A stretch of 20,000 nucleotides of DNA from Psammoneis japonica (taxonomy: Eukaryota): the NCBI GenBank assembly GCA_008632985.1, contig QPGO01000298.1:48434-68433 (forward strand), in the 5' to 3' direction. Every line of letters begins with the position of its first letter. Within the stretch, counting starts at the first letter, position 1. Positions 1 to 20,000 of the stretch are shown here, piece after piece. The notes beneath the pieces were generated by a model. It saw only the letters and a list, made by a program, of their open reading frames with translations. It did not search any database and was not told the origin of the DNA. The translations under genes were made by a program, and so were the position numbers.

Positions 1-65
1 TCTTCTTGTTTGTCATGTTTGATGGAGAATCTGCTGTGCTGATTCTGTTTGTTTGTTTGAGAGCA

Positions 66-81
66 AGAGAGAGAGAGAGAG
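66..81. repeat. (AG)8 microsatellite
   Basis: agagagagagagagag read directly. Confidence 0.85.
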
Positions 82-2754
82 TCAGGCAATGCATGGACAT
101 GCTCCAGCTTCTCTTTTTGAAGTTCACTCATTGCTTGCCAAGCAGAAAAAATGCATTGTGGTGCTCATGTCCAAGATTGTCTCTCTTGTCCATGGTGCCA
201 CCACACAAGGCTGCAACATGACCAAACAGCACAGAGAAGCAAGAAGTGCCCATTGTGATGATAAAATGACTGCCCCTTTCCAATCAGCAGTGTCAAATTT
301 CTTCATTGGTAGAACTGCAATGTCTGGTTTGGCACATGTGGGCATTTTTCCATTTTGTTCAGCAAAAACAGCCCGACTTGTGGGTGATTTCAGCAACGTG
401 TTTATCAAGTGTGCAAAATTCTTGCACATCCTCATCATGGGCTTGTTTTGTCCTGTCGGTCAACATGCAAGTTGCACCACTAAATTTGCCACACTCCAAT
501 TGGTCTGTGTGGTTGTTGGCGCACCATGCAAAGAGGTGGACCCAGTTTGGGCACTGACTTTGTGTGGGTCATCAAGACAAAAACTCATTGAAATGCAACA
601 GCCCCATTTGGCAAAAAGTTCAAGAGATTTTGCCATTTTCTTTGTGGCACACACTGCACCTGCTTTGCATTGTTGGTTGGTGGTGTGACTTCTGCACACA
701 GCTGCAAAGCTGAAAAAGAAATTGTCAAAAACAAAAGCACTTTGCCATGACAACTGTTGTGCAAAATTCCCATGTCACCCAACACAAAATTTTGTTCACA
801 GACAAATGTTTGAAAACGTTCCTCATTTGTGTTTCTGTGGGCATGAGCATTTTTGTTGCTGATGTCCAAAAGTCAAAAGCACTCTTTGTGCAATGCAACA
901 ATCATGCTTTTAAATTGATGACACAACAAACTCTCAACAAACAATTGCTTGCACAACTGAAGAAGTCTTTGTTGGCTCACTGACACATGAGAACAAACAA
1001 AACTTGGCAACAATTGTGTGTTTTGGGTTGGGGTTGAAGCTCCTTCTTTGGGAGTGCTGCTCTCTCCAACACAAAGAGAAGAGGGTCTTGCTCCTCTGTG
1101 CCAGAGCACATTTGCACTTGTGCAATGATCAATTTTGGCCAACGGAGGAGATCTGGTTGGGGAGTGTGCACAAAATTGTGCACAACAAAATGACCATTTT
1201 GGGGCACTTTCGTTTCACACTTCTTGCTGTGACAGGTCTGTGAGGGGCAGTTTCTTCTTTGGCTTCATTGACGAGCATGGGCTGTTTGAGCAAAAGATCA
1301 TGTTGAACCCACAGAGAGGCAGTCGTGAAAGCAAAGAAGGAGCTCCAATTCAAATTTGCTTGACCTTTGAGCCAACAACAAGAATGAGATCATCAAAAAG
1401 CTGGAACTGTGTTGCTTTGTTGCAAATTTTGTCAGTTGCTGGCCCGCCATTCTGTTTTCATGTGAGCCCCAACAACCCTGTTGGCACATGGCAGATTTGT
1501 GATCCAGCTGCATTTTTGGATGATTTCATTGTCTCAGCATTGCCAGCCCACCAGATTTTGGGCTGCACTGCTGGAAGTTGTTGAGTGTTTGGAGAGGTGC
1601 TGTTTGTTCTCTGAGTGTCATTGTGCTTTGTGACAAGCAGGCACACAAGCACTGGGACCTGGGCACACACACAGAGAGTTGCCACAGTGTGAAGCACCTC
1701 CCGCTGGCAGCACCTTGGGATGAAGCAGCAGTTGATTTGAACAACCCTTGGACAAGAAAAGCAAGACAAGATCCAGGATTAGAAAGTGCAGTTTAATGCT
1801 CTGCAACTTGTGTTTGTGTTGTGACAAATTTGGCTGAGAAACATCAAACAGTGTCTGACTTCTTTGAAAGGGCACTCCACTTTTGGAAAAGTGTCACAGA
1901 GAATTCTTTGGCCATCATGAGACTTCCATCTCATTGACCTTTGAATTGATTGTTGCACTGTTTGAATCACACTTGCAACATGATTGAAAATTTAGAGGGA
2001 CAAGATTCTGTGTGTGGGCATGTTTCTGCAATGGCCATCATGAGGGTCATGAGGGGAAGCCCACCTGACAGCCATGTTCAGGGTCGTTTCTTGTCACTGA
2101 CTTGTGTGCTGCTGGAAGACAGTGCTGGTGCTTTTCCATTGCCTTGAATGACATCCTGCCAACATCATGGTTGAATTTTATGTCTTGTGACCTCAACAGA
2201 ATTTTCAAAGGCTGATGGCAAAGGGAGGAAAAAATCATGGTGATGCTCTGGCGGAACACACGCAGCAGCGCATCCAGTGGTGGAGAGTGGCGAAAGCTGT
2301 TGCACATGATCTTTGCCAGCAGATGCAGCAACACAAAGCCAGTTCTCAACCAGTGCTTGCACAAGACATCAAACAGGCATGATGCCTTTGGTGGGATGGT
2401 GGACAACATTGCTTTCAAAATGGTGCATCGTCCACTCAATTTGACGTGAGCATGTCACTCCCTTTTGTCCGAGCACTCCTGTCAGCAAACCTTCTTCTCT
2501 CCCCAGACAGACAGCAAATCATGCCAAAGCAACAAGGCAGGTGTCACTTCAGCTTTGAATGAGTAAAAAAGCAAGGCAGAAATTGTGTGACATCTGTGTT
2601 CAAAAGTGCACAAGCACTGTCGATGCCCATCCGTCACTTGCTTCAAACGCAACAAGCCTGTTTGCAGAGGTGCAAAAACAAGAAACAAAATTCAATGCCT
2701 TTGTCACCAACCTGCCCCAAAAAGCTCAATGCACATCAAACATTTGTGGTTGCC

Positions 2755-3330
2755 TCAGAATGCTGCAAGCAGCACTGAGCAGAGAATGAAGACTCTTGTT
2801 GCAGGGTTGCTGTGAATTGACTTTGCTCGCCGCTGGACACATCAGGCGACGGACTGGTGACTTGCAGCTGTTGCTGAGTGTGGCTTTGTTTGGGAGGGCT
2901 GGTCAGAGTTTTCAAAGCTGGGTGAAAAAAGTCCGGGAAGAATCAGATGATGAAGTTTGTGATGGCTGCACTCAAAGCCGAGTGAATCAATGCAGTTGCT
3001 GCATGAGCTGGTTGTTTTGGGTGTGTCGTGGCCCGTTTTCACATGCACGAGTGGAGGCTTTGTGCAGATTCTGCAACCTGCAGTGTCTTGGTTTCATCAG
3101 GGGTCCCCATCATGGTTTCAAGCTGCTGGGCATTGGAAATGTTGAAACTGTTGGACCACATGTGGTGCGTTCTGTGGCGCCATTTGCCGGAGTGCTTTCG
3201 CCTCGATGCTCTGGCCAGGACACCGAGAGAACATGCAGTTTTGCTCAGCAGTGCTCTGACTTCTCATGGCAATCAGAGCACTGTCAAATGACACATGTCA
3301 CCACCAGTCCACATTTCTTTCAGGAGCTCA
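2755..3330 (-). pseudogene. 5'-truncated, frameshifted paralog of the C-terminal part of the neighbouring beta-propeller surface-protein gene
   Basis: Minus strand reads ELLKEMWTGGDM/SFDSALIAMRSQSTAEQNCMFSRCPGQSIE...HMWSNSFNISNAQQLETMMGTPDETKTLQVAES/KPPLVHVKTGHDTP. The intact gene reads ALLSERWTGGDMSFDGTLIIMRSQSTKRNYMFSRCPGQSVE...YVWSNSFNVPNARQLETMMWTPDGNETLQVAESKKPPLMYTKMNYENP. It ends in a hydrophobic tail PATRVFILCSVLLAAF* at 2755. Confidence 0.9.
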
Positions 3331-3409
3331 TGGTGCTTCGTTCGAAGGTTTTCGAAAATTTTTGGGAAGTTCTAACGTTCACTGTTTTGTGACGATGTTG
3401 TGTGCAGGG

Positions 3410-3426
3410 GTGCGTGCGTGCGTGCG
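3410..3426. repeat. (GTGC)4 short tandem repeat at the domain boundary
   Basis: gtgcgtgcgtgcgtgcg read directly. Confidence 0.75.
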
Positions 3427-3880
3427 TTGCGTTTCCCACACAGCATGTACTACATTCATACTGTACCGTACTGTACATAGACTACAATGACATGCTGAAT
3501 ACGCACCCTTTTCGGATGAACGTCATCATTCAGTATCGGTTTTGTGTGTCATGTACACGACATAACAAATGGTTGGCGCTCGTCCATTGACGAATTACAT
3601 TACGAAGTATTTAACAAATAATGATTATGTTTCTATGCATTCATATTAGACACAATTATGTGTCCACTATGACATTTATTTGATGTCGCAAGAGTATCGG
3701 AAAGTAACAAAACAAGTAGTACTTTCTGTGCGATACTCAACTGAAATCCCGCTTTTGGACTCCTTTGAGTCACAAGATCACAAGTGCATTGAATTGACGA
3801 CTCAAACTTGCTTCAACCGTACATACAGTAGAGAGGTACATACCGACTGTTTTCCACTCTTTATCCGTCATCCAGCTGAA

Positions 3881-5223
3881 TCATAAAATACAATTCGTCT
3901 GAAAAATGGTGTGAAGCATCGCGCAGAAGAATACAGTTTTTGAGGCCATCACGAGCTTCCAACTGCTGGAGGAGTCGAGTGACGACGGACTTGCAGTCGG
4001 AAGTGGTTGACTGGGTTTCGGTGATCCTGGACTTGTAGAAGGCGCGTCAGAGTTAAGCGCATTGGAGTCTGGTACATCAGAGAAGGTGGGTGAAACTGAG
4101 GGTGCCGGTGTTGGAGCTGATGAGGGCTCGTCAGACTCTTCGAGTGCAGCATCATAGTAGTCCTCGCAAGTGTTTATTAGAGCAGGATTTTCGTAGTTCA
4201 TTTTGGTGTACATCAGTGGTGGCTTTTTAGATTCGGCAACCTGCAGTGTCTCGTTTCCATCAGGGGTCCACATCATGGTTTCAAGCTGTCGGGCGTTGGG
4301 AACATTGAAACTGTTGGACCATACGTAGCAAGCGGTGGCGCCACTCGTTAGTGCGCTTTCGACGCTCTGACCAGGACACCTTGAGAACATGTAGTTTCGC
4401 TTAGTACTCTGACTTCGCATAATAATTAGAGTGCCGTCGAATGACATGTCGCCGCCGGTCCACCTTTCGCTCAGGAGCGCATCACTAGTGTTGTACGAGC
4501 CGACGGCTTCCACGGTATAACGAGTGGTTCGATTTTGCCAAGCTGATACCGGAATGCGGTACAAGCGAGTCTTGTCAAAGTCTTGATTACTTTTGCTGAC
4601 AACGTAGAGATCACCAATCTCATTTCCCTCTCCCCAACCTGTGTGATCCATGAAAACTGTCTCGGCGTTAACGGACGATGTCGGAGAAGAAGGGTGCTTG
4701 TAGTCGTAGTTAAGGTAGTCAACATCAGTCAGCGGTACCTCATCGTTGTCACGAAGGCTTTCGATCCTGGGCTCTCGAATCCTGATAATGCGATATGTGT
4801 TGCGACGTTTACGGTTGTCGCCGATATCTGCAATATAAATACAAGTCTCGCCAGGGTAAGACGCACCGCATGTTCCAGTGGTCATGTCCTCCCAATCCCC
4901 ATGTTCTGGGACACTGTCTAGTTTGAAGTGCGAAGACGCTCGCCCGTTGAAGAATCAAAGACAGCAAGACGTCTGTTCCCGCCGTCGTTTATCGCAAACA
5001 ACAAAAGAGCACCTGTGTCTGGATTACGTTGAGTTTGTGAAATACCGATACCGGAAATCTCTTTGAAACTGGGGCCGTTTGGATCATCTATCGTGAGAAG
5101 AGTGCTAGTGTCTGCTTCACCAATTTGAGGACAAATCACATTAGCAGATTGAACACTTCCAAACGACATTAACGTCAGATGGAAGAGAATTACTAAGCTA
5201 CGGCAGCAACAGACCACCCTCAT
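3881..5223 (-). CDS. Secreted/cell-surface beta-propeller-like protein (EISG...NDGG...DWEDM...YIADIGDN motifs) with Ser/Pro stalk and hydrophobic C-tail (possible GPI anchor); apparent 1-bp deletion near 4926
   Basis: ORF 4918-5265 (ATG at 5223, signal-like MRVVCCCRSLVILFHLTLMSFGSVQSA) joins ORF 3881-4885 if one T is restored in cgc act t(t)c aaa cta gac. This gives RTFKLDSVPEHGDWEDMTTGTC, and the motif order matches a family I recall mainly from bacterial secreted hypothetical proteins. Confidence 0.8.
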
Positions 5224-5404
5224 GGTACCGTAAAAAAATGCTGTCGTAATTTGCAACAAGTTCAAAAATTTTGCGCAGAACTTTTTGGCTGTGGCTCACT
5301 TTTCCGGCATACGAATTTCAATCGATTCCACATGAACGTAGAAACTGATCCTTCTGCCCGCCAAAATTCCCACCACGAAAAGTCTCGGGTTATGATGTGG
5401 CACA

Positions 5405-5444
5405 TGACGTCAGGGTCAAGGTTGCCAATGGACGGATGTGACGT
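5405..5444. promoter_or_regulatory. Two TGACGT (bZIP/aureochrome-type) boxes upstream of the propeller gene
   Basis: TGACGTCA at 5405-5412 and TGACGT at 5439-5444, about 180-220 bp upstream of the ATG at 5223. Confidence 0.3.
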
Positions 5445-5969
5445 CGTCCAGTCTTGGTCCAGTCTACCGTCTACCGTTACAGCCCTACTTCTCAACTCTG
5501 TGTACTGAAGTCGTAGCTCTAGAGTTACACTCTCTAGGGCCCTCTTTCTCTCTCTAGAGATGGAGTATTCATAGCTAGTACTTTAGAGATAGTGGTGTGG
5601 CACCTCTGCGACAACTACGTACCGTTAGGACCGCTGCAGTATGGGGGAGTAGGGCTAGGTTACGGTATGGTAGAGAGCATCGATCGTCGCACCGATTTTT
5701 TTTACGACAACACAACGGTGCGTCGTACTTTATCCGTGTAAACAGTCTCGTCTAGTCGTCGACGGAGGAGGTCGAATGCGATGACGAGGGTGAGGTCATC
5801 GACGACATGCGGTGAGAATTCGACAATTGCTTTCCATACGTAATCGGGACGGACAAGCTACTAACTAGCCACGATTGGTGAAGCAGAGCAAAACTTTGCC
5901 CTAACCCAACCTGGTAAACACACCATCTCTATCGTCTTTTCTTCCTATTGTTCTTCTACTATTTTTAGT

Positions 5970-6820
5970 TTAGGCGTACGGATTACCACCGGAATAGACT
6001 GTTTGATAAAACTCAATTGTTTCAAAAATGGTCTTGTGATTCACTAGCTCTTGAGCACACATACCAGCCCATCCCAACATGGCCAACCGTCCATGAGAGA
6101 GCTCTTTGGTTTGCATTCGTTGAAACGCGTAATTTTCTGTGGGCTTCAATCCCAAAGGATCAAAACCCAAATCGCCCGGGTAGTAGGAGTCCCTAAGAGT
6201 CCATAGCGTCTTGGAACCAATGCGAAACGTGGGTTCGACCCATCCCTTTTTCGCGCGATACAATTCAGCTGCCGCAATTACAGTTGTCAATAAAGCAAAT
6301 GCAGGAGCTGGAACTTGTTGTAGTTGATCGTTGGCGGGTCCAAGAATGTGAAATGGTCCACTGACCGCCTCTCCAGCCAAGTACCCACAACGGCAACCAT
6401 GGCTACTCGACCGTGCTGAACTTCAGCCTCACGCAGTCGCTTTGCGTCATTCAGTGGCAGTCCTTGTCGGGCAAAGCCAAGAGGATCAAAGAATCCAGTG
6501 GGAGCAATTGCGCCTGGAAGTCCCCATAGAGCGTAGTCTTCTTTCGGAACCCAGCCGTTGATAGGTGCAATGTCAATAGCAACGGCGGAATTAGTGGCCA
6601 CTACGGCATCAATCATTTGCGTTTCTTCTGGAGGAGACTCGTCGCTTAGAATCTCGTAGTATACGTCATCTTCGGTATCCTTTGCTGGTTCTTGTTCCGA
6701 GGGAGAGGACGAAAGGATGCTCGACGACAGATGCGCATGCTTTGGTTGTTGAGACGACACAAAGCCCGAGGCTTGAGCCGTCAAAAATGCAGATACGGCG
6801 AAGAATAAAGAACGGTTCAT
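5970..6820 (-). CDS. Lhcx: Light-harvesting complex protein, Lhcx/LI818 (LHCSR-like) family, plastid-targeted; apparent 1-bp deletion at 6384-6386
   Basis: Signal peptide plus ASGF motif (MNRSLFFAVSAFLTAQASGF), LPGAIAPTGFFDPLGF, helix 1 REAEVQHGRVAM, GWVEP, YYPGDLGFDPLGLKP and helix 3 MQTKELSHGRLAML. The two ORFs join as VVGYLAGEAV if one G is added to the GGG run. Confidence 0.9.
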
Positions 6821-7068
6821 TGTGCGTTTCAAATGTAACTTTGTGAGGTCGTTCTGTTGTTGCGTTCATGGTGGCGAGGCATCACCACCTCACAAGTCGT
6901 CATCGCTTGCCGATTTGGTCCGATTTTGTGAGTCAGGTCAGTCGTCGGAGGTCGGAGGGAGTTTTCAGATAAAAAACATATGAGTTAGCCGGGGTAGGGC
7001 TAGTTGGTCGCGCACGTTTGGGTTCGATGTGATGAGCAACTAGCCATACCCTGCAGGAAGAGCTGTTG

Positions 7069-7186
7069 CTGGCGCGCGAGCAGAAGCAACAAAGCAAAGA
7101 ACACGGCGTGGGTCAAAACGTTGTAAAATGACGCAACAACAAGCAACGAGAAGAAACCCAACTTGACCCATGAATACAGCGCATAC
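7069..7186 (-). other. Possible spliceosomal intron (GTATGC...TTGAC...pyrimidine-rich...CAG, 118 bp) in a small unidentified transcript starting near the ATG at 7263
   Basis: Donor, branch-like and acceptor motifs with plausible spacing; the ATG follows AACAACACC. The spliced product (~70 aa) is not recognisable. Confidence 0.3.
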
Positions 7187-7700
7187 ATATTGTCCAACCA
7201 CTTCAATAGTATCTCGTATTCCCAACTTGTAGATGAGGGGACGGCGTTCGCGTTTCTCGCCATGGTGTTGTTGTGCGTTATCGTGTTGTTTGCGCGCGAA
7301 GAACACGGGATCTATTTATCCGATAGTGACTCTGTTTTGGTAATAGTAGATTTTTTACTATATTCAATACAGATTCTAAAATGTGTTTCGGGGTGTTCCT
7401 CACTTTTTTGAATTTGGGTATGTATATTTTAAAGACCTAAGAAATGTTAATGATATGTAAAACCCTAAGAGACCTACATAAATTTATGTTCCATGTAGAC
7501 CGCGTAGATTGTGTACCGGCGGAAAATCCACCGCCTGTCAACTCATCAGTAGTAATTCTACGTATATTCTACTTACACCTCACACACGCACACACGCCTA
7601 CACAGTCTAATAACCGCGCACACGTGCGCGAGATAAGGCTATGGACATACTATTTCGTTTTTACTCCTTAATGTTTATACGTGACCGAAGAATAATATTG

Positions 7701-7731
7701 AAAAATCAAAAAATCAAAAAATCAAAAAATT
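7701..7731. repeat. (AAAAAATC)~4 tandem repeat at the left edge of hypermutated domain 2
   Basis: aaaaatc aaaaaatc aaaaaatc aaaaaatt read directly. Confidence 0.8.
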
Positions 7732-7885
7732 CGGGATTCGCAATCCCCTTGCTGCGATGACGATGACTGGCGAAACGAGAAGCCTCCTGCTGTCACACGA
7801 CATGAGCCACTCAACGCAACAATTTATCAAACAACGACCTTCGATCAATGGAACAAAGGTCGAACCTCCTCCAACTACAAAAGGG

Positions 7886-9722
7886 ATGATCGCAAAAGTG
7901 AGAATGAAAAAGACCAGCAACTCCTTTCCATTGCGACTGGAACTGCAGTTGATTGTCGCCGTTGCAGCTCCACCCCGCATGAGAGCAGAGTGCAATTTGT
8001 GCCCACCAGAATCCTTGTTATTTGCAGATCGGATTGTTCCATTGTCCGGCTACAACACGCCTCCACCCCCTCAAACTTGTCAAGAAGCCTCACACAAGCC
8101 TTGCTTTTTGACAAAACCACTGCTGATTGCACAGAGTTTGTCTCGGTCCATCAACTTTTCTGCTGCAGCAATGTGCAACCACCAGGCTGCTTGCTTTGCC
8201 CCAACAGAGACACTCCACTTCTTCTGGACCACATTGATGTTGTGGTTGATGATTTGTCAACGAAGTTGGTGGAGGAGGGGGGTTGGACAATTGCGGCCAG
8301 CACTGGCATGGCTTTGCCGTCAAGTTTGAAAAAGAAGTGCGACAAGTTCAATGACCTGCTGGGACAACTCTCAACAAGAGCATGGGATGACTTTGTCTTC
8401 CAAAAGCTCTGAGCCTTCTGGGTAGAGTTGACAGTTCCCAAATCCCATCGGTGGCACTGCCCCATTGCAGCCACACCAAAACGGAGCAGGTGAAGTCACC
8501 ACACGTGGAACCACCGGAAGGCCATGGAGAATGTTCCCTTTGCCCCAAAGGCTCAACGCTTTTGAACACTGGCTTGATGCCAGATTTTTATGGCTTGTGC
8601 AATTTGGAATCTTCTGCTCTTCGTGTTGGCAACGAAGAGTGTGGGAATTTCCGAGCAGCTCACGGAATTGGCCAAGTCATGTGTTGCAAAGATGTCGAAC
8701 CACCAGGATGTTTTCTGTGTCCAGATCAAGGCGAGTTCAAAAGGCACTTTAATTTTCCCATTGCTCTTTCTGCTGGGGCATCTTGCAACTCTTGCATGGA
8801 TCTTTTCAGGGACGCGCTGGCCAATTGTGACGAGGCTCAATGCACGGACTTGGAAAGCTCTGGTGCCTCATTTCTTTGTGGCTGCGAAGGAGCAACCGAT
8901 CCTGCCTCTAGGACATGGCAACTGTGGCCCACATCTTTGTCCAGAGGGAGTGGAGCTCTGGAGTGACTGTTTTCAGTTTGGTGGAAATCCATTTGTGAAC
9001 TCATGTGGTGATGCCGAGGCCGAATTAGCGCGCGTTTCCGATGATGAATGTGAGAGTTTTTCAGACCGCTTTCGGCCGTTTTGTTGCCGAGGCTTTGAAC
9101 CCAGAGGCTGTTTCCTTTGTCCCAGTGGAAACTGTTCCATTGTCACTTGCATTGATGGAGGGATGTCCATCACAATTGGGAATTTTACAACTTCCAGCTG
9201 CCAAGAGTTAGATCAGAAAGCAGCCTCATCCTTCATGGCTGAACAATGTCAAGAACTCGCGTCCTCAGATGCTGCTTGGCAATGTGGCTGTTGGGAGAGT
9301 GTCACTTTGGTGACTCCTTCACTGGCAATGCCCACTCCATCTGCTTCCAAGCCAACAACTGCGTCACCTTCTGTGCTCAAGTTCCAACAACCCCCATCCC
9401 GACCACTCTCTCGCCAACGTCGTGCGCTCCAACTGCTGTCACGCCAGCAACTGTGCTCCCCTCTGCCCCAGTTCCAGCAACACCCATCCCATCCACCCTC
9501 TCCCCAACAACCCCCGAACCGACTGCCACTTTTCAGCCAGCAGTGACTGAGCCCCCTTCACCCTCTGCTCAAGCAGCAAATGCAACGGATTCTCCTGCCA
9601 CGACAGCGACTCCGCCTTCCGCCACTCTGTCACCGACGACTTCTCATGCTCTTGTTGTTTCATCCATGATGGAGATTCAGTCAATCCTTGTTCCTTGTTG
9701 GGTGGTGCAAATTTCCATGTAG
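7886..9722 (+). pseudogene. Frameshifted Cys-rich cell-surface protein gene: three CxLCP...CC-x3-(E/Q)P(P/R)GCxLCP modules, a Pro/Thr/Ser mucin-like stalk and a hydrophobic C-tail
   Basis: Pieces in successive + frames: AECNLCPPES; FCCSNVQPPGCLLCP; ECSLCPKG...MCCKDVEPPGCFLCP...FLCGC; HLCPEG...FCCRGFEPRGCFLCP...WQCGC; VPTTPIPTTLSPT...VPATPIPSTLSPT; LVVSSMMEIQSILVPCWVVQISM*. Confidence 0.8.
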
Positions 9723-9749
9723 AAAGTTCACTGTCTCTAACATGGGGTT

Positions 9750-10950
9750 GTGACCAAGTTTGTCTGGCTCCAACAAGTGCAAATGTTGGAATTCCTGGCC
9801 ATTGTTCCTTTTAATTTGATCAATTCAAATGTCATCGGACTGTCATCCACTCCATGGATGATCTGCATCTCCAAATGCCTCAGCATCGTCAGGGTCTGGG
9901 ATTGGGAAAATCACAACATTCACTCCATCCGGAGTGGCAGGATGGAGGCCGCCACACTGATGGGTGCACCTCCGTGGGATTGCACCTGCAAATCGCAAGT
10001 GCCCACCGCTGCTTTGTGCACACAGACCCACTTGTTGTCCGCCACACTGATGGCACGACAGTGTTCCATTGGACCACCTGGACATTGCATCTGTGCCAAG
10101 GACAAGTGTCTCATCTAAGGTCTTGCTCCTCCCTGCCCTGGAGCTGTCCTGTTGCCAGAGCTCGACGACAGAGCTGCGCTCCCTCGCGATTCTCTCCCAA
10201 CAAACAGTGGGCCGCCGCAGCCTGCATGATGTGACTGGCATTCTCTGGATCACATTCCATCAATGCCATGGCGGCCCGGCGATGAACCTCGAGCCTTGGT
10301 CCATCACCCGAATCAACATCAATGGCTTCAGCACGGGCATGTCTGCACACTCCCACTGAGGCTTCAATTGACAATTCCCGGTGTTGCGGCGTGTCCGCAC
10401 TAATTTGGAGTGCCCACTTGAGCGCTTCCCCTGGATTTCCTCCTGCCATGCAGCACGTGCAACACGTGTCACACCTTGACTCATTGATCCTTGGACAATT
10501 GTCCAGGAGCATTGGCGCGACTTTTTGCACAATGGACCATGCTTCCTTGGGTCGCTTTCCAACCTCACGCAACAAATTGGCACAGGTTGAGCTCATTTTA
10601 GTGTCCTCCGGCCATCGCTCGCAGTTCTGCGGCATGACGCTGTGCTGTGTTCTTGTGCAAGTCACATTTCTGGTTCGACTTCTTTCGCAAGTTTTCACCC
10701 TTGATGCAACGCGTCAAGGGTGGATTGACCAAATGAGCCTGTGGCGACAAACTTTCGTCTTCAGCACTCGCCTCTGGTTTGTGACAAGCAGTGCATGGAT
10801 GAGCACCGGGTGTCGTTGTACATTGTTTGAGTCTGGCGACGGACTGTTGAGAATCACACCAGACCCTCCATTCAGTGCCTTTCCTTGCTCACTCTCAAGT
10901 CCTGTGATTGTCACAAGCGTGGATGTGGCGATGACGTCTTCGTTCTCCAT
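9750..10950 (-). pseudogene. Decayed gene with an N-terminal VxIxGLxSxxGxxLNGxxGxI...R(Y)PV module followed by TPR-like helical repeats
   Basis: MENEDVIATSTLVTITGLESEQGKALNGGSGVIL...QRHPVLI, then in another frame STCANLLREVGKRPKEAW...ECDPENASHIMQAAAAHCLLGENREGAQLCRRALA. This looks TPR-like when C/H are read as former Y. Several frameshifts; the 3' end is approximate. Confidence 0.6.
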
Positions 10951-11101
10951 TGCTGTTCTAAAGAGGAGGAGGCACACAATCTCTCTGGTAGAAGCATCAT
11001 ACAAAAGCTGTGTGATTGGCCTCTGGTGATCAGCAGTGATCCACTCCCGGCTTGGGAGGTGGTGGCAGTGATCCGATTTTGAGAGATCTGTCATGACGAA
11101 A

Positions 11102-12556
11102 GTTGTGAAAACCGATTCTCAAGAATCCGGGTGCCGATTCTTAAGAATCTGATTTCCGTTGAACGCAAAATTCGAGCTCGATGTGCGTGCTCAACGGACG
11201 ATTCACAAGTTCCGCCGTCCTGTTTTCTTGGGGGGGTCATCCCCGCGTTTGTCCCAAAATTGCCGCTGCATTTGAATGAGGTTTTTTGTGGTGTTTATTT
11301 TTGAATGCAAGAATTGTTCACAGTCACACCTGATCGCGCACGAAAACGAGAACCATCACCACCGCGACCGAAGCACGACGATGATGACAATCATCGACAT
11401 TTCTCAAAAACGCAGTTTGCCGTCTACCAACTTTTCATGCATGTGCAATCTTTGACACATGACAAACATAAAATGAATGAGAGTTGGCAGACGGACCACC
11501 TCCGTCACAGACTTGTGGCTTGTTGTTTTCACCGCGGTGAAGCACGGTGAAATTCAGGAAAAATCATGCAAAATGCGAGCTGTTCGGCCGAATTCGAGCT
11601 AAAACAAGTGGCAACCGACCACCCTTAAGAATCGAAGTTCGATTCTTGAGAATGGCTGTCACTGATTCTTGTGAAAACTCCTGACACATCATTCATTCAC
11701 CAATTTAAAATTGTGGCGTCACGTGCATTTAACCCCAAAAGAATGGATGTGAATGTAAAGCGATTTTCGTAAAGACTTCAAAGCTGTGAACGACAATGGC
11801 GGCTTTGATGCAAGAAGCGACACCATTCAAGACATTGCGATGAACACTTCAACCTCATTTGACAGTGCTCAGTTTGTGACACTTGTGAGAGTCTTGCTGT
11901 GCTTTGAAAGCCGCTCTGGAGTCGAAAAAACCGTCGAAACACTCATGCGCCGATGTTGTTGTCATGCTCTCTCGACCGAAAAAGCAATGAAGAAGTCAAT
12001 TCTTCTCAGATTTTTCGATTCATTAACATGCAAGCTGTCAAGATGCAACACATGGTTGATTGTTGGGACTGTTGATTGACTTCTCGTTGACAATGATCGC
12101 CATTTTGACTTTGGATTCATGTGACAGATTTTTCACAAGAGTTCCCTTTTCACAAGATTCCAATTCGTGGCACGAGCTCCGATTCTCAAGAATCGATTTT
12201 CACAACAATGGCAATCTTTCGCGCTGTAGAGTCATTGCGTAGAAATCATGTGGGACAGTGCCAAGTCAAGTCTGTCTGTCTGTCCTTAGTGAATTTTAAC
12301 TTTGCGAAAAATGGATTTGACTGTTTTCTGATCAGGCGCATTTTTCTTCAACACATTTGCAAAAACACGCCTGACCCGACAACAGTCAAGTCCATTTTTG
12401 CACAAATTGTGTGAACATGACAGTTTCAGTGCAAAAATGTGTGGATTCTACAGGCGTCCTTAATTAATTTGTGGGTCACACGTCACGGGTCATTTTCAAA
12501 AGATTCCCATTGATTCGGTCTCCGATTCTTCAAGAATCGTCGATTCTCAAGAATCG
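11102..12556. repeat. Clustered palindromic motif (C)GATTCTTAAGAATC(G) and variants; possible termini or sub-termini of a non-autonomous DNA element
   Basis: Copies at 11114-11127, 11136-11149, 11624-11634 (partial), 11641-11653, 12181-12194, 12524-12538 (+1 nt) and 12542-12555. 11102-11127 and 12181-12206 form a 26-bp inverted repeat with 3 mismatches. Confidence 0.75.
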
Positions 12557-13123
12557 TCGTAACAGATCCAATGGATCCACAAGTCGTCGTGTGTCGTGCG
12601 TGTGTGTGTGTTGTTCGTGGGTGCATGTCCGTCCTTCGTCTCAGGCGAGGAAGGCCTGTGCACCCGCGTCGCACCCCGTCCCCTCAGGTGCTGTTGTCAA
12701 GGTTTTTTCCGCACTTTGGGTGCAATTGTGACACTCAACTATGGCCACAATTCTTGTTTCGCAATCATGACGAGAGAAGCTTGATTGTCACTTGCTTCAT
12801 TGTGCCAGTTTGTTCTTTGTTTTTCTTGTGTCTTTTTGGGAGACTCTCCTTGCAAGGAGTGGCACAGCTGGCGAGAGATGTGATCGAGAGACATTCACAC
12901 ATGGGGCAAAGCTGCAAGAAATGTTTTGGGAAATGTGCAGAGAAAGTGCTTCACCCGATGCAACCAAACAGTTCAAAGAGAATGCAAGAAACATGATGAT
13001 GCCATGCACCACTCTCGGGGAGCGCCACTCTCGGGGAGAGACGACTTTCTTGTGTGTGTGCTGCTGGGCAAAAGTTGCCACTGGCAGCACACACATTTGA
13101 ACCTCGCTGTTGTGCTGCTTGCA

Positions 13124-13139
13124 CTCTCTCTCTCTCTCT
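13124..13139. repeat. (CT)8 microsatellite
   Basis: ctctctctctctctct read directly. Confidence 0.85.
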
Positions 13140-14278
13140 GTCCTGCTTTGATGGTGTGCTGCAGGGGTGAACAAAAAGCAACAGTGTGCTCTGCCACAAG
13201 CCATTTGGACCTGCTCCTGCCTTCGTTGGGCATGCTGCTGTGCTGCTCCCATGCTGCTCCTCCTGCTGAGGACAATCTTCCTTTGCCCAGTGGCACTTCC
13301 AAATGGGGTTGCAGATGGAAACCCTGATCAAGTGTCCTGCTTTTGTGTGTGGTGGTGGCACGTCATCTCTCTGTCTTCTTCTTCTTGGAGTGCTCTTGCG
13401 CAGCTGTGATGATGGCATGCACACACACAAACACCAGACACACCAGCCACTCTGCTTTTCAGAGGCTCAGATGACAGCTCCACACTCTCTGCAGCAGAGC
13501 CACTCTCCATTGTGAGTCCATGCGTTGACCGACATGCGTGCTCGCCACGAACACCAGGTCACCTCACAGACTCTCAGAGAATTCAGACAGATGGTGTGTT
13601 CTTGTGCCCTCTGGCATGTGTTGTGTAGAAGTCTGTGCACAAACTTTTTTGTGCTTGTAAAAATGTGACACATCCACAAGAGCACCGGAACACATTGACT
13701 GCTGCATGTGACCCCAGCGCACAGTTTGTCTGCATTCTCCTCTGAGAGTCTGGTGTGAGGTGACCCGGGTGTGTGAAGTGCACTTGCATCAGTTTTTATG
13801 CTCAGACTCATGATGGAATGTACTGCAGAGCAGCAACAAGAGCAAGCAAGAGGTGTGAATCCTGACCATGTTGCAAAGGTCACCTGCAGGCAGCCACAGG
13901 CTGCTCTGCCAGTTTTTGGAGAAAATTTGCCAAAGAAGACACTGCTGCTGTGTTTCGACGATTTCGAACCCCCCCCCAACTCTGCATCATCAAAACCCTT
14001 TATGAGCCTGGTTTCCCATGCCCTCTAAGCCAAAGCCAATGAAAATAAGAAAACTGTTCAACATGGAGAATCAAAAAGGTGGCTTCTCCTGTGGAACCGT
14101 GTGCGATGCGGGCAATGCAAGACGAGCGCGACAGACGGACATACAGAAAAAATCGAAAAAGCCGCGACGACAACATCCAGAAGCCAGGAGCGATGGCCAT
14201 GAACCGGCAGCGGCGGCACTTTGTTGAACCCACACAACATCTTTCGACCTACTAGTACCCTCCACTTACTGTTCCATC

Positions 14279-16855
14279 ATGACTGATTCCAACAAGGACG
14301 ATTCATTGTCGTCGTATCAACGCCCGTCGCCGCTGTTGGAACGCTTGATGCAACCCCAGAAGAATCCGTCTCTGACTCTTTCGTCCAACCAACAATGGAT
14401 CGCCTTTGCCGACGAGCCACCACTGCCGTCCATTTCGGATCTAGCACAGCCAGAAGAAAAATTGGCGGGTCTTCGGTTTCATCCTGAGCTCTTGACACGG
14501 TCCCGTTTGGAATGGGCGACGGGTCTCACTCTGCAACACTTGGAAACGGGCCACCGCATAGACGTGCCAATGCCCGAAAATGCAGAGGGGATTCGGTATA
14601 TTCGATTCAATCCAAAGTATTATCAGACGACCGACGATAGTGACATTCAGCAAGAATTTGTTCTTGTTTGCAAAGTCAAGGACGAAAAATCGTCGACTCC
14701 GAGATTGGAATTGCATCGCGGTCAACTTACCGGACGCGATGCAGGTTCTTGGCGGTGGAGCATGACTTGTATGGATTCTCTATTGCCATTCAAATTAAAT
14801 TTGATTCAAGGATGCCCTTTTCAGTTTACCAGTGATGGGAATTATCTATTGGTGGACGTGGTTCCTCAAGACCACCCGTCAGAGCCACCGCCCACGCCTC
14901 TTTCGGTGGGTCCGGCCATTCAACAAGTACGAAAGGGTGCTCGCAAGGCACCCGGGCGCACCTATCAAGATTTGCTGCAGAATCAACACGATCAAGACAA
15001 ATTAAAGTATTACGTGACGACTGAAGTTGTGAAAGTGCCTTTGGAAAAGGACGCTGGTGATTCCGTGCAAGTTCTGCCGCAATCGGTGGGTGGTTGCCTG
15101 TTTCAGAGTTTCTCGTGCAGTCCAAACGGACGCTTTCTCTTGGTTCAGCGTGTCAATCCCGAGTTGTTGTCCTACTCGGTCCCGTACAGTCGATTCGGCA
15201 AGATTGTAGAGCTCTGGGATTTGCATTGTTCTCAAAGCATCACGGTGGCCTCCTTGCCCGTGGACGATGAAATCCCATTGAGTTACGATGCCTGTTCTCG
15301 TCATGTTCGGCGATTTCGGTTTCATCCCCTTGATGATTCGACCATTCTTTATGCACATGCCTTGGATGGCGGAGATCCGGCACGTGAGGTTGAGGAGGGA
15401 AACTTTCGGGATGCCTTGTACACGCGCAACTTGCAAGTAGACGACGACGACGACGACAGCACGATGGCGTTGGGTGATCCGATTCAACTGGTGGGTCTCG
15501 AGTGGCGTTATGACGATGTCGAATTTACCGAATCGGGTTTGATTGTTGTGGATGAATATCGTTGGAAGGATCGCATGGAGCGCAAATGGAAAGTCGCAAG
15601 TGATGGAAACAAGACTTTGGTGTGGGAACGATCGTGGGAGGATCGTTACACGTCCCCGGGGGCACCCGTCACTCGACTGGGTCCACGGGGCCAATCGTTC
15701 ATTGTGGAACCAGAACCTCGTGTCATTTTCCTCAAGGGAGCCGGAGCATCTCCTTTGGGTGATCGTCCCTTTTTGGATCGACGGCGTTTGGATACGGGTG
15801 CGTCCGAACGCCTTTGGCGATGCAAGGCTCCAAAAGAAGGAGACATTCCCGACCTTTCCTTGGAAGTGGGTGGTGTTGCACCAACGGACCGTGACGATGT
15901 GTTTGAATCGGTCGTCATTTTACTACCGGATAACGAACGTGTGCTCATGAGTCGTGAAAGCAAAACGACGCCAAGAAACTACTATCTCACGTCGCTCAAG
16001 GATCTCAGCGACCAAGTAACTGTAACTACCTTTCCGCATCCCCAAGTTGACTTGCTGGGTGTGACTAAAGAATTGGTCACGTATGAACGCAACGATGGTG
16101 TCACGCTGACAGCTAATCTGTATTTGCCCAAGGACTATGACGGCACACCACGACCAACGCTCTTTTGGGCGTATCCTCGAGAGTTCAAAAATTCAAAGGC
16201 TGCCGGACAAGTCAAGGGGAGCAAACACAGGTTTGTATCGGCCTCGTGGGCATCACCGGTTCATTGGGCAGCCAAGGGATGGGTCATTATGGATGACTTT
16301 GCGCTTCCAGTTATTGGAGAGGGTGACGCACAACCCAACGATAACTTTGTAGATCAAATTGTGTCGGGCGCCACAGCTGCCGTGGAGTATGTAACCAAGC
16401 GTGGTGTTTGCGATCCAGCGAAATGTGCAGTGGGTGGTCATTCTTATGGGAGCTTCATGACGTCCCATTTGCTGTCGCACACGAGTCTATTTGCGGCTGG
16501 CATTGGTCGCAGCGGTGCCTTCAATCGGACCTTGACTCCGATGTCCTTTCAATCCGAAGACCGCAGCATGTGGGAAGCACCCGACACATACATCAACATG
16601 TCGCCCTTGATGCACGTCGAAAAGTATTCCAAACAAGACCGTGTGGGAAAACTCTTGTTGATTCACGGGAAGAACGATGAGAACAGTGGAACGCATCCAA
16701 TGCAGTCTGAGAGATACTTCTCCGCCTTGAAGGCTTTTGGAATTGAATCGCGACTCTGCATGTTGCCGCACGAGCGACACTCCTATCGGGCCAAGGAATC
16801 TATTTTGCACATGGCGTGGGAACAAGAAACATGGCTGGCGAGTTTGGAAGAATAA
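14279..16855 (+). CDS. Prolyl oligopeptidase family S9 serine peptidase, glutamyl endopeptidase (cGEP/S9D)-like, 858 aa
   Basis: Intact intronless ORF; YQRPS start motif, EEKLAGLRF, RTYQDLL, YERNDGVTLTANLYLP, WAYPREF, nucleophile GGHSYG, LLIHGKNDENSGT (Asp) and LPHERHSY (His). Confidence 0.93.
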   Translation: MTDSNKDDSLSSYQRPSPLLERLMQPQKNPSLTLSSNQQWIAFADEPPLPSISDLAQPEEKLAGLRFHPELLTRSRLEWATGLTLQHLETGHRIDVPMPENAEGIRYIRFNPKYYQTTDDSDIQQEFVLVCKVKDEKSSTPRLELHRGQLTGRDAGSWRWSMTCMDSLLPFKLNLIQGCPFQFTSDGNYLLVDVVPQDHPSEPPPTPLSVGPAIQQVRKGARKAPGRTYQDLLQNQHDQDKLKYYVTTEVVKVPLEKDAGDSVQVLPQSVGGCLFQSFSCSPNGRFLLVQRVNPELLSYSVPYSRFGKIVELWDLHCSQSITVASLPVDDEIPLSYDACSRHVRRFRFHPLDDSTILYAHALDGGDPAREVEEGNFRDALYTRNLQVDDDDDDSTMALGDPIQLVGLEWRYDDVEFTESGLIVVDEYRWKDRMERKWKVASDGNKTLVWERSWEDRYTSPGAPVTRLGPRGQSFIVEPEPRVIFLKGAGASPLGDRPFLDRRRLDTGASERLWRCKAPKEGDIPDLSLEVGGVAPTDRDDVFESVVILLPDNERVLMSRESKTTPRNYYLTSLKDLSDQVTVTTFPHPQVDLLGVTKELVTYERNDGVTLTANLYLPKDYDGTPRPTLFWAYPREFKNSKAAGQVKGSKHRFVSASWASPVHWAAKGWVIMDDFALPVIGEGDAQPNDNFVDQIVSGATAAVEYVTKRGVCDPAKCAVGGHSYGSFMTSHLLSHTSLFAAGIGRSGAFNRTLTPMSFQSEDRSMWEAPDTYINMSPLMHVEKYSKQDRVGKLLLIHGKNDENSGTHPMQSERYFSALKAFGIESRLCMLPHERHSYRAKESILHMAWEQETWLASLEE

Positions 16856-17151
16856 ACGTCCTACTAGACTACACCACCTCTCTAGAGAGGATTCTGATAT
16901 CCAATATTACAGAGTGCATCTCTTAGATTTTCTTTGTGTTTATGATGGCAGGGTATAAGATGTTTTTACGAAGTATGTATGAAATTATAATAGCGTGTCC
17001 GTGTTCCATGTGACGGAGGATGCGCGAAAAAGCTGACGATGCCGCATAACAAATATTTTGACACGTGACAACAAAATCTGGGACACTTCACTATCATCAC
17101 ACAGATGACAAAGATGTAGCATGGCGGCTTTCGTAACGATGTAAATGAACA

Positions 17152-17853
17152 ATGCTTTGCTGGAGGATCGTTTTGATAGTTTGGGTAGCGTGGCTTATGC
17201 CCTGCTTGATTGTTCCGGTTGCTGCAATGACGCGGCGACAGGCTCTGCAAGAACTGGGCCTCGAAAATGGCTCTTTCACGCAGCAAGAGCTCAAGAAAGC
17301 CTACCGTGCACGAAGCCTCCAGACACATCCAGACAAGGGCGGCTCACACGAAGCCTTTATTCGAGTTGCCCAAGCTTATGAATTACTCTCTGGTTCTGGT
17401 ACTCACAAATTCCATAGCAACGAGCGTGATCACGATCGTAGAAGTCGAGGTCGTGAAAATCAAGAGCAACAAAGAGAACGACAAGAGGAGCAACAACGCC
17501 AACAGCAAGAGCATGATAATGAGGAAAAGACACGTCAACAGGAAATGTTCGAAGAAGCAGAAGACATGCTCTTTGACATGTTTGAAGACTTCTTTTCCGG
17601 AAACTATGCCGACGTTGTCCTGGACAAGATCTTTCCACAAAAAAACTTGACGCGAAACCAAGGGTTTGCCAAATACTGTCTTCGCTGGGCTGTTGATCGC
17701 CTTACAGACAAGGCTTTGTGTCTGTTGGAAGAAAGCGAATTGACCATTCACATTGACGGCCATACCTACTTTTCAGCATCTAGTTTTAGAGAGTGGCGAG
17801 ACCGCGTTCGTCAGAGGAGACAGAAAAAGCAACAGCATCATTCTGAATTCTAG
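17152..17853 (+). CDS. DnaJ (J-domain) protein with signal peptide and C-terminal HSEF (HDEL-like ER retrieval), 233 aa
   Basis: Hydrophobic N-terminus, ELKKAYRARSLQTHPDKGGSHEAFIRVAQAYELL J-domain with HPD, Q/E-rich linker, ends HHSEF*. Confidence 0.88.
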   Translation: MLCWRIVLIVWVAWLMPCLIVPVAAMTRRQALQELGLENGSFTQQELKKAYRARSLQTHPDKGGSHEAFIRVAQAYELLSGSGTHKFHSNERDHDRRSRGRENQEQQRERQEEQQRQQQEHDNEEKTRQQEMFEEAEDMLFDMFEDFFSGNYADVVLDKIFPQKNLTRNQGFAKYCLRWAVDRLTDKALCLLEESELTIHIDGHTYFSASSFREWRDRVRQRRQKKQQHHSEF

Positions 17854-18690: not shown

Positions 18691-19602
18691 TCATATCCCT
18701 GGAACAAATCGATCAGGTCGCTTTCTTTTTCTTCCTGTGTTCCTGTAGCTAAACAGATCTGGCTTTTCACAAAGCAAGGAGTAAACAGTGCCCACTCTGG
18801 ACATGTCTGTACTACGCTCCCCCACTTTGGCCAAGACATATGCCCAGAGAGCTGGATGAACACTGTCCTGTTTCAAAAGTTGTCGCCCATGCGCTTCGAT
18901 CAACACCGAGACTACGGCTTGATGACCCTCATCGACAGCGGCGTCCAACGGTGTTTCTCCATCCACATCTTTGGCGTCCATGTCAGCTCCGCGTTCCAGC
19001 AGGAGTCTCGCCACGCTTTCGCTACCTGACGTGCCTGCTGCATAATGCAAAGGCGTAAGCCCATCCTTGTCTATCTCGTTGACTCGCGCCCCTCCATCCT
19101 CCAAGAGAACTCGCGCTGTGTTTTCCCTTCCGGCACTTGAAGCAAAATGAAGAGCTGTTTCACCCAATCTAGTTGACTTCAAATCTACGTCGGCACCATT
19201 TCGCAGCAGAAACAAGCACATATCATCATGACCATAATACGAAGCTGCGTGCAAGGGCGTGAAACCATTGCGGTCAGTTCTGTCATTGACCGCCGCGCCG
19301 TGCGACACGAGCATACGAGCAATGGATACACGCCCGTGAAGGCACGCCGAGTGCAAGAGTGTTACTCCACGTGACCGATCCATCACACGTGCTCCAGCAT
19401 CCAGCAAGAGCTGCACTTTTGCATCGCGATCGGTTATGACATTCAGAATAACCACCTGAAAAAGGATCTGGATTGGACCACCATCATTCATGCGGTTCAC
19501 AGGCATGTTCGGATTGGCGCCGCGCAAAAGTGCACGTCGAACTTCATCCGTGCTGCCGCTTTCACGCAAAAGGTTTGATTCTAGGATTTGATCCAAATTC
19601 AT
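18691..19602 (-). CDS. Ankyrin-repeat protein with C-terminal basic NLS-like RKRKRP, ~303 aa
   Basis: Repeats GVTLLHSAC, GFTPLHAAS, GETALHFAS, GLTPLHYAA and GETPLDAAV. First ATG at 19602 (MNLDQILES); the listed ORF start is GTG. Confidence 0.9.
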   Translation of the reverse strand: MNLDQILESNLLRESGSTDEVRRALLRGANPNMPVNRMNDGGPIQILFQVVILNVITDRDAKVQLLLDAGARVMDRSRGVTLLHSACLHGRVSIARMLVSHGAAVNDRTDRNGFTPLHAASYYGHDDMCLFLLRNGADVDLKSTRLGETALHFASSAGRENTARVLLEDGGARVNEIDKDGLTPLHYAAGTSGSESVARLLLERGADMDAKDVDGETPLDAAVDEGHQAVVSVLIEAHGRQLLKQDSVHPALWAYVLAKVGERSTDMSRVGTVYSLLCEKPDLFSYRNTGRKRKRPDRFVPGI

Positions 19603-19719
19603 GGCTAAACTGACACGTTGTGATGAGAAGTGAATGGAATGGAGCCGCCGCGTCGACCCAGTGCTGCTCTGTTGCTCGCTCACATCACGCACGGCTGACG
19701 CCTAGTAGAGAGCACTAGC

Positions 19720-20000
19720 GCCTCTGTCAAATTGCGCTTCAAACCTGGAGCCCCCCATGTCCGTCAGCGCGCCGGGTGCACCCTGCCCGACCATGGTGTC
19801 TTGCCAATGACTCAGATGATGAAGATAACAAGGAAGAAAATGATCAGCATGTCTGCATGGAAAATTCTTGCAAAGAGTCGGTTGCCGCCATCGACAATGA
19901 TGACATCATCCCCTTCTTGCGGGGAGAAGGTGTCTTGACACGATGACTCAGACGACGAAGATGACGAGAAAGAAAATGGTCAGCGTGTCTGCGTGGAAAG
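19720..20000. other. Start of a third TpA-depleted domain (runs off the right edge)
   Basis: Only one TpA (gataac) in the last ~280 bp. Confidence 0.6.
19795..20000 (+). repeat. ~134-bp direct tandem repeat (second copy cut by the window end), encoding acidic DSDDED-like peptides
   Basis: ggtgtcttgccaatgactcagatgatgaagataacaaggaagaaaatgatcagcatgtctgcatggaaa (19795) vs ggtgtcttgacacgatgactcagacgacgaagatgacgagaaagaaaatggtcagcgtgtctgcgtggaaa (19929). Confidence 0.85.

Follow-up and report, generated by a model that had tools for sequence, protein, structure and literature searches.

A stretch of 20,000 nucleotides from the diatom Psammoneis japonica (GenBank assembly GCA_008632985.1, contig QPGO01000298.1, positions 48,434 to 68,433; the whole stretch is referred to as the window, and positions are numbered within it) contains two blocks of DNA in which the dinucleotide TpA is almost absent, and the first of these blocks ends in a decayed fragment of a gene whose intact relative lies close by in DNA of normal composition. 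These data are best explained by a hypermutation, confined to particular regions and symmetric between the strands, through which TpA becomes TpG or CpA in silent DNA, accompanied by CpG decay; we give this reading a probability of a little under four in five. The loss of TpA is specific to its dinucleotide context, regionally limited with sharp borders and independent of copy number. Both a fragment of a host gene and an inserted miniature inverted-repeat transposable element (MITE) are affected, and the direction of change is from TpA to TpG/CpA at those sites that could be polarised, with one exception described below.

Results

Loss of TpA from a truncated gene copy

The functional-looking member of the pair occupies 3881-5295 on the reverse strand and has observed/expected ratios (o/e) of 0.63 for TpA and 1.06 for CpG. 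Its decayed relative, also on the reverse strand at 3036-3335 (core 3050-3331), is truncated at the 5' end, carries frameshifts, contains no TpA and seven CpG, and matches residues ~160-251 of the 357-aa open reading frame (ORF) in the 3' part of the gene. Self-BLAST paired 3050-3331 with 4215-4482 (77% over 282 columns), and global alignment of the core on the coding strand yielded 268 aligned bases at 81% identity, the 51 mismatches consisting of 36 transitions and 15 transversions.

In the intact gene, the corresponding segment (4201-4485, reverse strand) contains 20 CpG and 11 TpA, the latter at 4209, 4228, 4322, 4326, 4349, 4392, 4402, 4405, 4420, 4423 and 4427. An earlier note, made by inspection of the sequence, had stated that all 11 are missing from the copy, and the recount agreed. 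On the forward strand six read CA, three TG and one CG, and one is split by a 2-nt indel; the note had given six CA, four TG and one CG, a difference that depends on the alignment. Most CpG had been said to have become TG or CA, as was found for 12 of the 19 that could be aligned; two were kept and five read AG on the coding strand. At none of the 39 TG or CA steps of the intact segment does the copy have TA. All three sequence examples quoted in the note are present, as are the proposed replacements of tyrosine by cysteine or histidine (Y188C, Y210H and Y249H).

The note had also suggested that changes at TA be set against other transitions, and the rates proved to be unequal: transitions affected 10/20 A/T bases within TpA and 7/108 A/T bases elsewhere (Fisher p = 9e-6). 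The corresponding figures for G/C transitions were 12/40 at CpG and 7/100 at other sites (p = 8e-4). Transitions outside these contexts were low in number and symmetric (seven A/T and seven G/C). When the 51 mismatches were placed at random, all 10 aligned TpA were struck in only 30 of 2,000,000 trials, which confirms that the paired loss of TpA is far beyond chance.

The identification of the copy as the decayed partner is supported by its truncation, by its frame-breaking indels and by the loss of residues that do not vary among the family members (G174S, T175A, C209H, W229G and G233E). No match to the 5' 60% of the gene was found elsewhere in the window. The interval given in the earlier note starts at 2755; homology was recovered for 3036-3335, and to the left of 3036 blastn detected none, while a single tblastn alignment reached down to ~2875 (residues 170-311, 34% identity). 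The interval 2875-3035 on the reverse strand, a weak match at the protein level only, may be what is left of the copy's C-terminal, Ser/Pro-rich tail.

The intact gene and its family

The protein encoded at 3881-5295 belongs to a rare, unnamed family, three homologs with 33-39% identity being found among 5.8 billion proteins. Read tentatively in functional terms, it has an N-terminus resembling a signal, followed by a conserved domain, a stalk rich in Ser and Pro and a hydrophobic C-terminus. The intact protein gave no Pfam match at E<=0.01 and no match in the PDB, and a Pfam scan of four aligned family members at E<=1 returned only PD40 (E 0.087, in one of the four), which is at the level of chance.

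The version of the gene in the window is divided into two overlapping ORFs, 4918-5295 and 3881-4954. The sole contig at that place among the k-mer contigs of a public sequencing run (X1) has an extra G behind 4926, and one extra base at this point fuses both ORFs into the single frame that fits the homologs (GERL...DWEDM). The window thus carries a 1-nt frameshift here and not an intron, the cause being either an allele or an error of the assembly.

A TpA-erased domain with a sharp border

The copy constitutes the last 300 nt of a TpA-erased domain (D1, 1-3372) that runs off the left end of the window. D1 contains 10 TpA, where 245 are expected from base composition and ~182 at the frequency of the adjacent DNA (Poisson p ~1e-63). 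The o/e values are 0.04 for TpA and 0.22 for CpG, against 1.75 for TG and 1.91 for CA; in the adjacent DNA (3373-7700), which holds the intact paralog and a gene for a chlorophyll-binding protein, they are 0.77 for TpA and 1.11 for CpG. The fraction of pyrimidine-purine steps is constant across all blocks (0.24-0.256) and the GC content of erased and normal DNA is alike (0.461 vs 0.468), which fits a redistribution by transitions and does not fit GC-biased conversion. GC-biased gene conversion was also rejected as an explanation of the pair, since A/T transitions outside TpA amounted to only 7/108 and GC was unchanged.

Only ~300 of the 3372 nt of D1 are duplicated, 90% of the domain being without a partner in the window, and read depth (73-120 per bin) indicates that it is single-copy. 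No Pfam family passed the cut-off in the 28 ORFs scanned from D1, and among 81 ORFs scanned from D1 and the second depleted domain (D2, below) none reached the curated cut-off, the five matches obtained (E 0.0016-0.02) being at chance level.

The border of D1 is sharp, falling within ~100 nt. In the border zone (3336-3447) homology between copy and gene ends at 3331-3335, CpG returns at 3339 and the density of TpA recovers at 3448. A CpG-rich, (GTGC)n-like microsatellite is located at ~3400-3430. Beyond the border the intergenic sequences at 3448-3880, 5501-5750 and 7251-7700 have TpA o/e values of 0.8-1.5, and the genes have values of 0.41-0.63.

The 55 TpA that survive in D1 and D2 are, compared with normal DNA, strongly biased towards TTA/TAA and are rare as ATA/TAT. 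Counts by flank in depleted and normal blocks, respectively, were 51 and 170 for TTA, 11 and 210 for ATA, 22 and 259 for GTA and 26 and 203 for CTA (chi-square p = 4e-9). This bias suggests either a preference of the process for certain neighbours or a regeneration of TTA/TAA.

A second depleted domain containing a MITE cluster

The second TpA-depleted domain, D2, extends over 7701-14000 and contains 45 TpA (o/e 0.11). Its right border lies 230-400 nt before the ORF of an S9 peptidase and its left border adjoins a TpA-rich repeat. Within D2 a cluster of MITE-like repeats (11102-12206) was recognized by inverted ends of 26 nt, 88% complementary, with the repeated end motif GATTCTCAAGAATC; further copies of the motif are present at 11136 and 12542. 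The bins covering 10673-12673 behave as a high-copy repeat, with a summed depth of 1000-7700 compared with ~75 for single-copy DNA. The MITE cluster, like the sub-block 11001-12750 in which it lies, has a TpA o/e of 0.15 and a CpG o/e of 1.04. TpA is thus depleted where CpG is normal, which indicates that TpA loss and CpG decay are separable, and TpA loss appears to be the faster process and to have continued after insertion of the MITE.

The repeat at ~6981-7700, between the chlorophyll-binding protein gene and D2, is also high-copy (summed depth 2400-5000) and has a TpA o/e of ~1.0, so that a TpA-rich repeat (~7000-7700) directly adjoins D2 yet is unmutated. At 7448 and 7502 the TA or CG of the window is replaced by CA in some other copies of this repeat, and mutated members of the family may therefore exist elsewhere. 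X1 also contained joints from 7634 to 13671 and from 13596 to 6981, with sides of only 25-41 letters.

The left part of D2, 7700-9700, contains three modules of 50 nt (8152-8201, 8673-8722 and 9073-9122) that are 60-70% alike and encode a CC..PPGC.LCP-like motif in three different frames, and these Cys-rich modules are followed by a Ser/Thr/Pro-rich stretch at 9380-9660. To judge from these remains, the region looks like the ruin of a gene for a Cys-rich, mucin-like surface protein. It encodes almost no tyrosine, as is expected after TAY has changed to TGY or CAY. A HMMER search with the ORF at 8578-9543 against 1.84 billion representative proteins returned no matches, and the best score in an Atlas search with 8962-9330 was 0.87, to diatom hypothetical proteins, which is regarded as a lead only.

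The earlier note had concluded that targeting does not follow the pairing of duplicates, and this conclusion was supported: the loss spans a single-copy domain of 3.4 kb in which ~300 nt are duplicated, and the partner of the duplicated part is normal. With 90% of D1 unpartnered and single-copy, a normal partner gene and repeats that keep their TpA, the data support a process that does not depend on pairing.

Direction of change

The X1 contig over 1-3137 showed no differences from the window at a depth of 73, and the same was true of the contig over 3110-3924, the depth of the two (59-73) being like that of the neighbouring genes. X1 therefore reproduces D1, and the erased state is present in reads and not in the assembly alone. 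Two other runs (X2 and X3) contained little or nothing of the region.

The direction from TpA to TG/CA is supported, with one site apparently reversed and most sites polarised only indirectly. Polarisation by outgroups, which the earlier note had proposed, succeeded at two codons: at Y188 (TAC) the three homologs have F, Y and Y and the copy has TGC, and at L202 (CTA) they have L, I and L and the copy has CCG. The TpA codon at L176 is synonymous. Within the MITE repeat the comparison was made with other genomic copies in the reads, 27 of the 40 best-supported read differences (of 1031) being located in 11262-11736. In 20 of these 40, all within the same interval, the other copies have TA where the window has TG or CA by our own classing, and in one more they have CG where the window has TG. 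At site 11475 TA accounted for 7490 of 9254 depth units.

In the intact gene, the X1 contig differs from the window at 4417, 4427 and 4433, three sites within 17 nt, and in each case has the base of the copy, so that by parsimony these would be changes on the lineage of the window's gene. The differences of the copy at 4421-4423 and 4432 are not shared by the X1 contig, which argues against a simple conversion tract. The same parsimony makes TA the ancestral state at 4432-33, from which the window's gene has moved to TG and the copy to CA; after correction the tally is still 11 ancestral TpA, every one of which is lost in the copy. A further variant site was noted at 4046.

A number of observations weigh against the proposed hypermutation or narrow its support. 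The protein outgroups polarise only two TpA codons, and at Y210, V211 and Y249 the three of them (33-39% identity to the query) show no conservation. At 4427 the copy probably lost nothing, the window's gene having gained its TpA there from CpA, and parsimony at 4433 points to a TpA to TpG change inside the supposedly spared gene. The run X1 may be the window's own source sample, and the read differences are the 40 best-supported rather than all 1031. Finally, the break in homology (3331-3335) almost coincides with the border in composition (3339-3448), so that the border, instead of being a chromatin boundary, may mark a place where a rearrangement joined younger DNA to old, or the edge of an old inserted element. 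Two claims of the earlier note held in part. Polarisation by outgroups favoured loss in the copy at Y188 and L202 and was of no use at Y210, V211 and Y249, and 4427 is probably reversed; the intact copy, said to be untouched, is normal in its TpA and CpG o/e, but by parsimony carries the change at 4433 and has an open frame only with the base behind 4926.

Neighbouring genes and the end of the window

The genes in the window are compact and are those of nuclear DNA from a photosynthetic eukaryote. They include a chlorophyll a/b-binding protein gene (LHC/FCP-type; 5970-6865, reverse strand), the S9 peptidase (14228-16855, forward strand), a DnaJ protein (17149-17853, forward strand) and an ankyrin protein (18691-19701, reverse strand). 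The S9 peptidase has 60-66% identity to proteins of Cylindrotheca, Skeletonema, Pseudo-nitzschia, Fragilariopsis and Thalassiosira, which agrees with a diatom that has no very close sequenced relative in the collection searched. A metagenome scan with this peptidase, which was aimed at similar blocks beside orthologs in other diatoms, produced four contigs of 1.7-3.7 kb without usable flanks.

Self-BLAST identified one paralogous pair in the window, in addition to a 70-nt tandem repeat at 19795-19999. The two units of this repeat (19795-19863 and 19929-19999) are 84.5% alike, and their differences are mostly CG in one and TG/CA in the other. A single TpA, with normal CpG, is present in the final 280 nt of the window, which may be the start of a further block.

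Discussion

The fragment at 3036-3335 would, in our proposal, be a promoterless, truncated pseudogene copy that was absorbed into a block of silent DNA, where two context-specific transition processes would have run nearly to completion. The first would turn A:T into G:C at an A preceded by T, on either strand, and hence TpA into TpG or CpA; the second would convert CpG to TpG or CpA, as expected for methylated cytosine. Together they would funnel all pyrimidine-purine steps into TG and CA, and both would cease within ~100 nt of the end of the neighbouring gene unit. Neither the intact paralog with its flanks nor the gene after it is affected.

Silent repeats are methylated in diatoms, and the decay of CpG, taken as a proxy, suggests long-term cytosine methylation of the depleted DNA. 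We infer that the domain corresponds to transcriptionally silent, methylated chromatin, and targeting by chromatin domain would be plausible. The TpA step may be enzymatic, and most plausibly an adenine that stands in a 5'-T context would be deaminated on DNA, the product being read as G at replication. The TG and CA outcomes are interleaved to the same degree as in normal DNA (runs tests, z -0.7 to -2.3), which argues against processive editing of one strand and against an RNA intermediate.

The closest known counterpart is found in the chlorarachniophyte Bigelowiella natans. In mutation-accumulation lines of this rhizarian alga TpA changes de novo to TpG/CpA in two silent insertions, one of them an integrated giant-virus region and the other a virophage region, at a rate of ~6e-7 per site per generation, and adenine deamination was proposed as the cause, with an ADAT2-like candidate named (bioRxiv 10.64898/2026.01.13.699255). 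The likeness extends to changes that are almost exclusively A to G or T to C at TpA on either strand, to confinement within kilobase-scale regions whose flanks are normal, and to a TpA depletion coupled to enrichment of CpA and TpG in mostly unannotatable sequence. The virus-derived hypermutable region of B. natans is described there as transcriptionally silent and single-copy, and D1 is likewise single-copy.

The differences are several. The present host is a diatom, and erasure is near total (o/e 0.04-0.11), against a Rho of 0.45 in the nucleocytoplasmic large DNA virus (NCLDV) region of B. natans. CpG decay accompanies TpA loss here, whereas the text of the preprint mentions neither CpG nor diatoms (bioRxiv 10.64898/2026.01.13.699255). 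The sequences struck here are a host-gene fragment and a MITE, with no recognisable virus, and the B. natans data record mutation in real time whereas the diatom process is known from its footprint in sequence. In literature searches judged from titles and abstracts no report of the signature in diatoms was found, and the B. natans preprint was the only description returned (bioRxiv 10.64898/2026.01.13.699255).

The similarity with repeat-induced point mutation (RIP) of ascomycete fungi lies in context-specific transitions that ruin non-functional or selfish DNA and leave a dinucleotide signature. RIP, however, creates TpA from CpA, whereas here TpA is destroyed; it requires and mutates both duplicates, whereas here the partner escapes and 90% of D1 has no duplicate; and it lowers GC, which is here 0.461 in erased and 0.468 in normal DNA. 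An action of the RIP kind on both duplicates does not fit a single-copy, mostly unduplicated D1 beside a normal partner gene.

Decay driven by 5-methylcytosine agrees with the conversion of 12/19 aligned CpG to TG/CA and with the CpG o/e of 0.22 in D1, but leaves the loss of TpA unexplained, and the depletion of TpA in 11001-12750 is not matched by CpG, which is normal there. Hyperediting of the ADAR type, A to I, likewise prefers an A that follows U or T and results in A to G. It differs, when acting through an RNA intermediate, in that here both strands are affected in an interleaved manner, in single-copy, non-repeat DNA with sharp genomic borders. The surviving TpA, moreover, are biased to TTA/TAA, a bias that is not known as the neighbour rule of ADAR.

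The alternative that survives best, although we consider it unlikely, is that D1 and D2 go back to old insertions of mobile or foreign (for example viral) elements, a gene fragment having been captured or interrupted by one of them, and that the elements themselves are targeted, for example by small RNAs, rather than a block of chromatin. Such an explanation would agree with B. natans, where the hypermutable regions described are integrated viruses (bioRxiv 10.64898/2026.01.13.699255), with the MITE-like repeats inside D2, with the coincidence of composition border and homology break and with the absence of any ORF above the Pfam cut-off (0/81), and the lack of any match to the ORF at 8578-9543 is what degraded foreign DNA would be expected to give. 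The mutated copy, however, derives from a host gene, D1 is single-copy, and TpA is retained by many other copies of this MITE family and by the repeat at 7000-7700. The nearest Atlas clusters of the D2 ORF, a lead only at 0.87, are diatom hypothetical proteins.

It is improbable that age alone accounts for the data, in the sense that TpA changes to TpG/CpA at a high rate throughout the genome, that selection retains TpA in genes and regulatory DNA, and that D1 and D2 are simply old neutral sequence. TpA is under-represented even in genes (o/e 0.41-0.63), and one TpA to TpG change may be placed in the intact gene (4433), as such a process would predict. Age would not produce borders as sharp as ~100 nt, nor would it leave TpA at an o/e of 0.8-1.5 in intergenic sequences such as 3448-3880, 5501-5750 and 7251-7700, nor would TpA persist in the high-copy repeat beside D2 or at synonymous positions of the gene (CTA at L176 and L202, GTA at V211).

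Still less credible is the reverse polarity, in which TG/CA would be the original state and a RIP-like change of CpA would have introduced TpA into the intact gene and into the remaining repeat copies. The repeat comparison formally fits either direction and 4427 does look like a gain of this kind, but it is D1 that is aberrant (TpA 0.04, CpG 0.22), whereas the values of the gene (0.63 and 1.06) match those of other genes. The outgroups have Tyr or Phe at 188 and Leu or Ile at 202, all invariant residues are kept by the partner that bears TpA, and RIP would mutate both duplicates and lower GC, which is equal in the two blocks.

A technical artefact, in which base-calling or assembly errors systematically write TA and CG as TG/CA, can practically be dismissed: modified bases can cause context-specific miscalls and the library type of X1 is not on record, but the X1 k-mer contigs match 1-3137 and 3110-3924 without differences at normal depth, copy and partner also differ by indels, transversions and non-context transitions, and either state is carried by different copies of the repeat.

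As a means of genome defence, hypermutation in a specific context is, to our knowledge, firmly established for cytosine alone, in fungal RIP and APOBEC editing. For a counterpart directed at adenine in TpA there is so far one report, a preprint on a rhizarian alga (bioRxiv 10.64898/2026.01.13.699255). The saturated footprint described here extends the range of the signature to the diatoms, a major and ecologically dominant group with genetic tools, and indicates that host-derived DNA and MITEs are struck as well as viruses and that the TpA process can be separated from CpG decay. The natural pair of sequences before and after mutation, together with the sharp borders, provides material for the study of targeting rules and of candidate deaminases. 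The finding also bears on annotation. With TAA and TAG gone only TGA stops are left, and erased blocks give rise to many long spurious ORFs in all frames and to Cys/His-rich pseudo-proteins.

We suggest, tentatively and as somewhat doubtful, that diatoms possess an enzymatic genome defence or heterochromatin-linked editing that turns the adenine of TpA into G, on the two strands alike, a 'reverse RIP' operating alongside cytosine methylation, and that the same system is present in chlorarachniophytes, being ancient throughout the stramenopiles, alveolates and Rhizaria (SAR) and aimed by chromatin state rather than by homology. If this were so, silent DNA in these organisms would be edited to saturation, with TAA and TAG stops, Tyr codons and TATA-like motifs erased from whole blocks.

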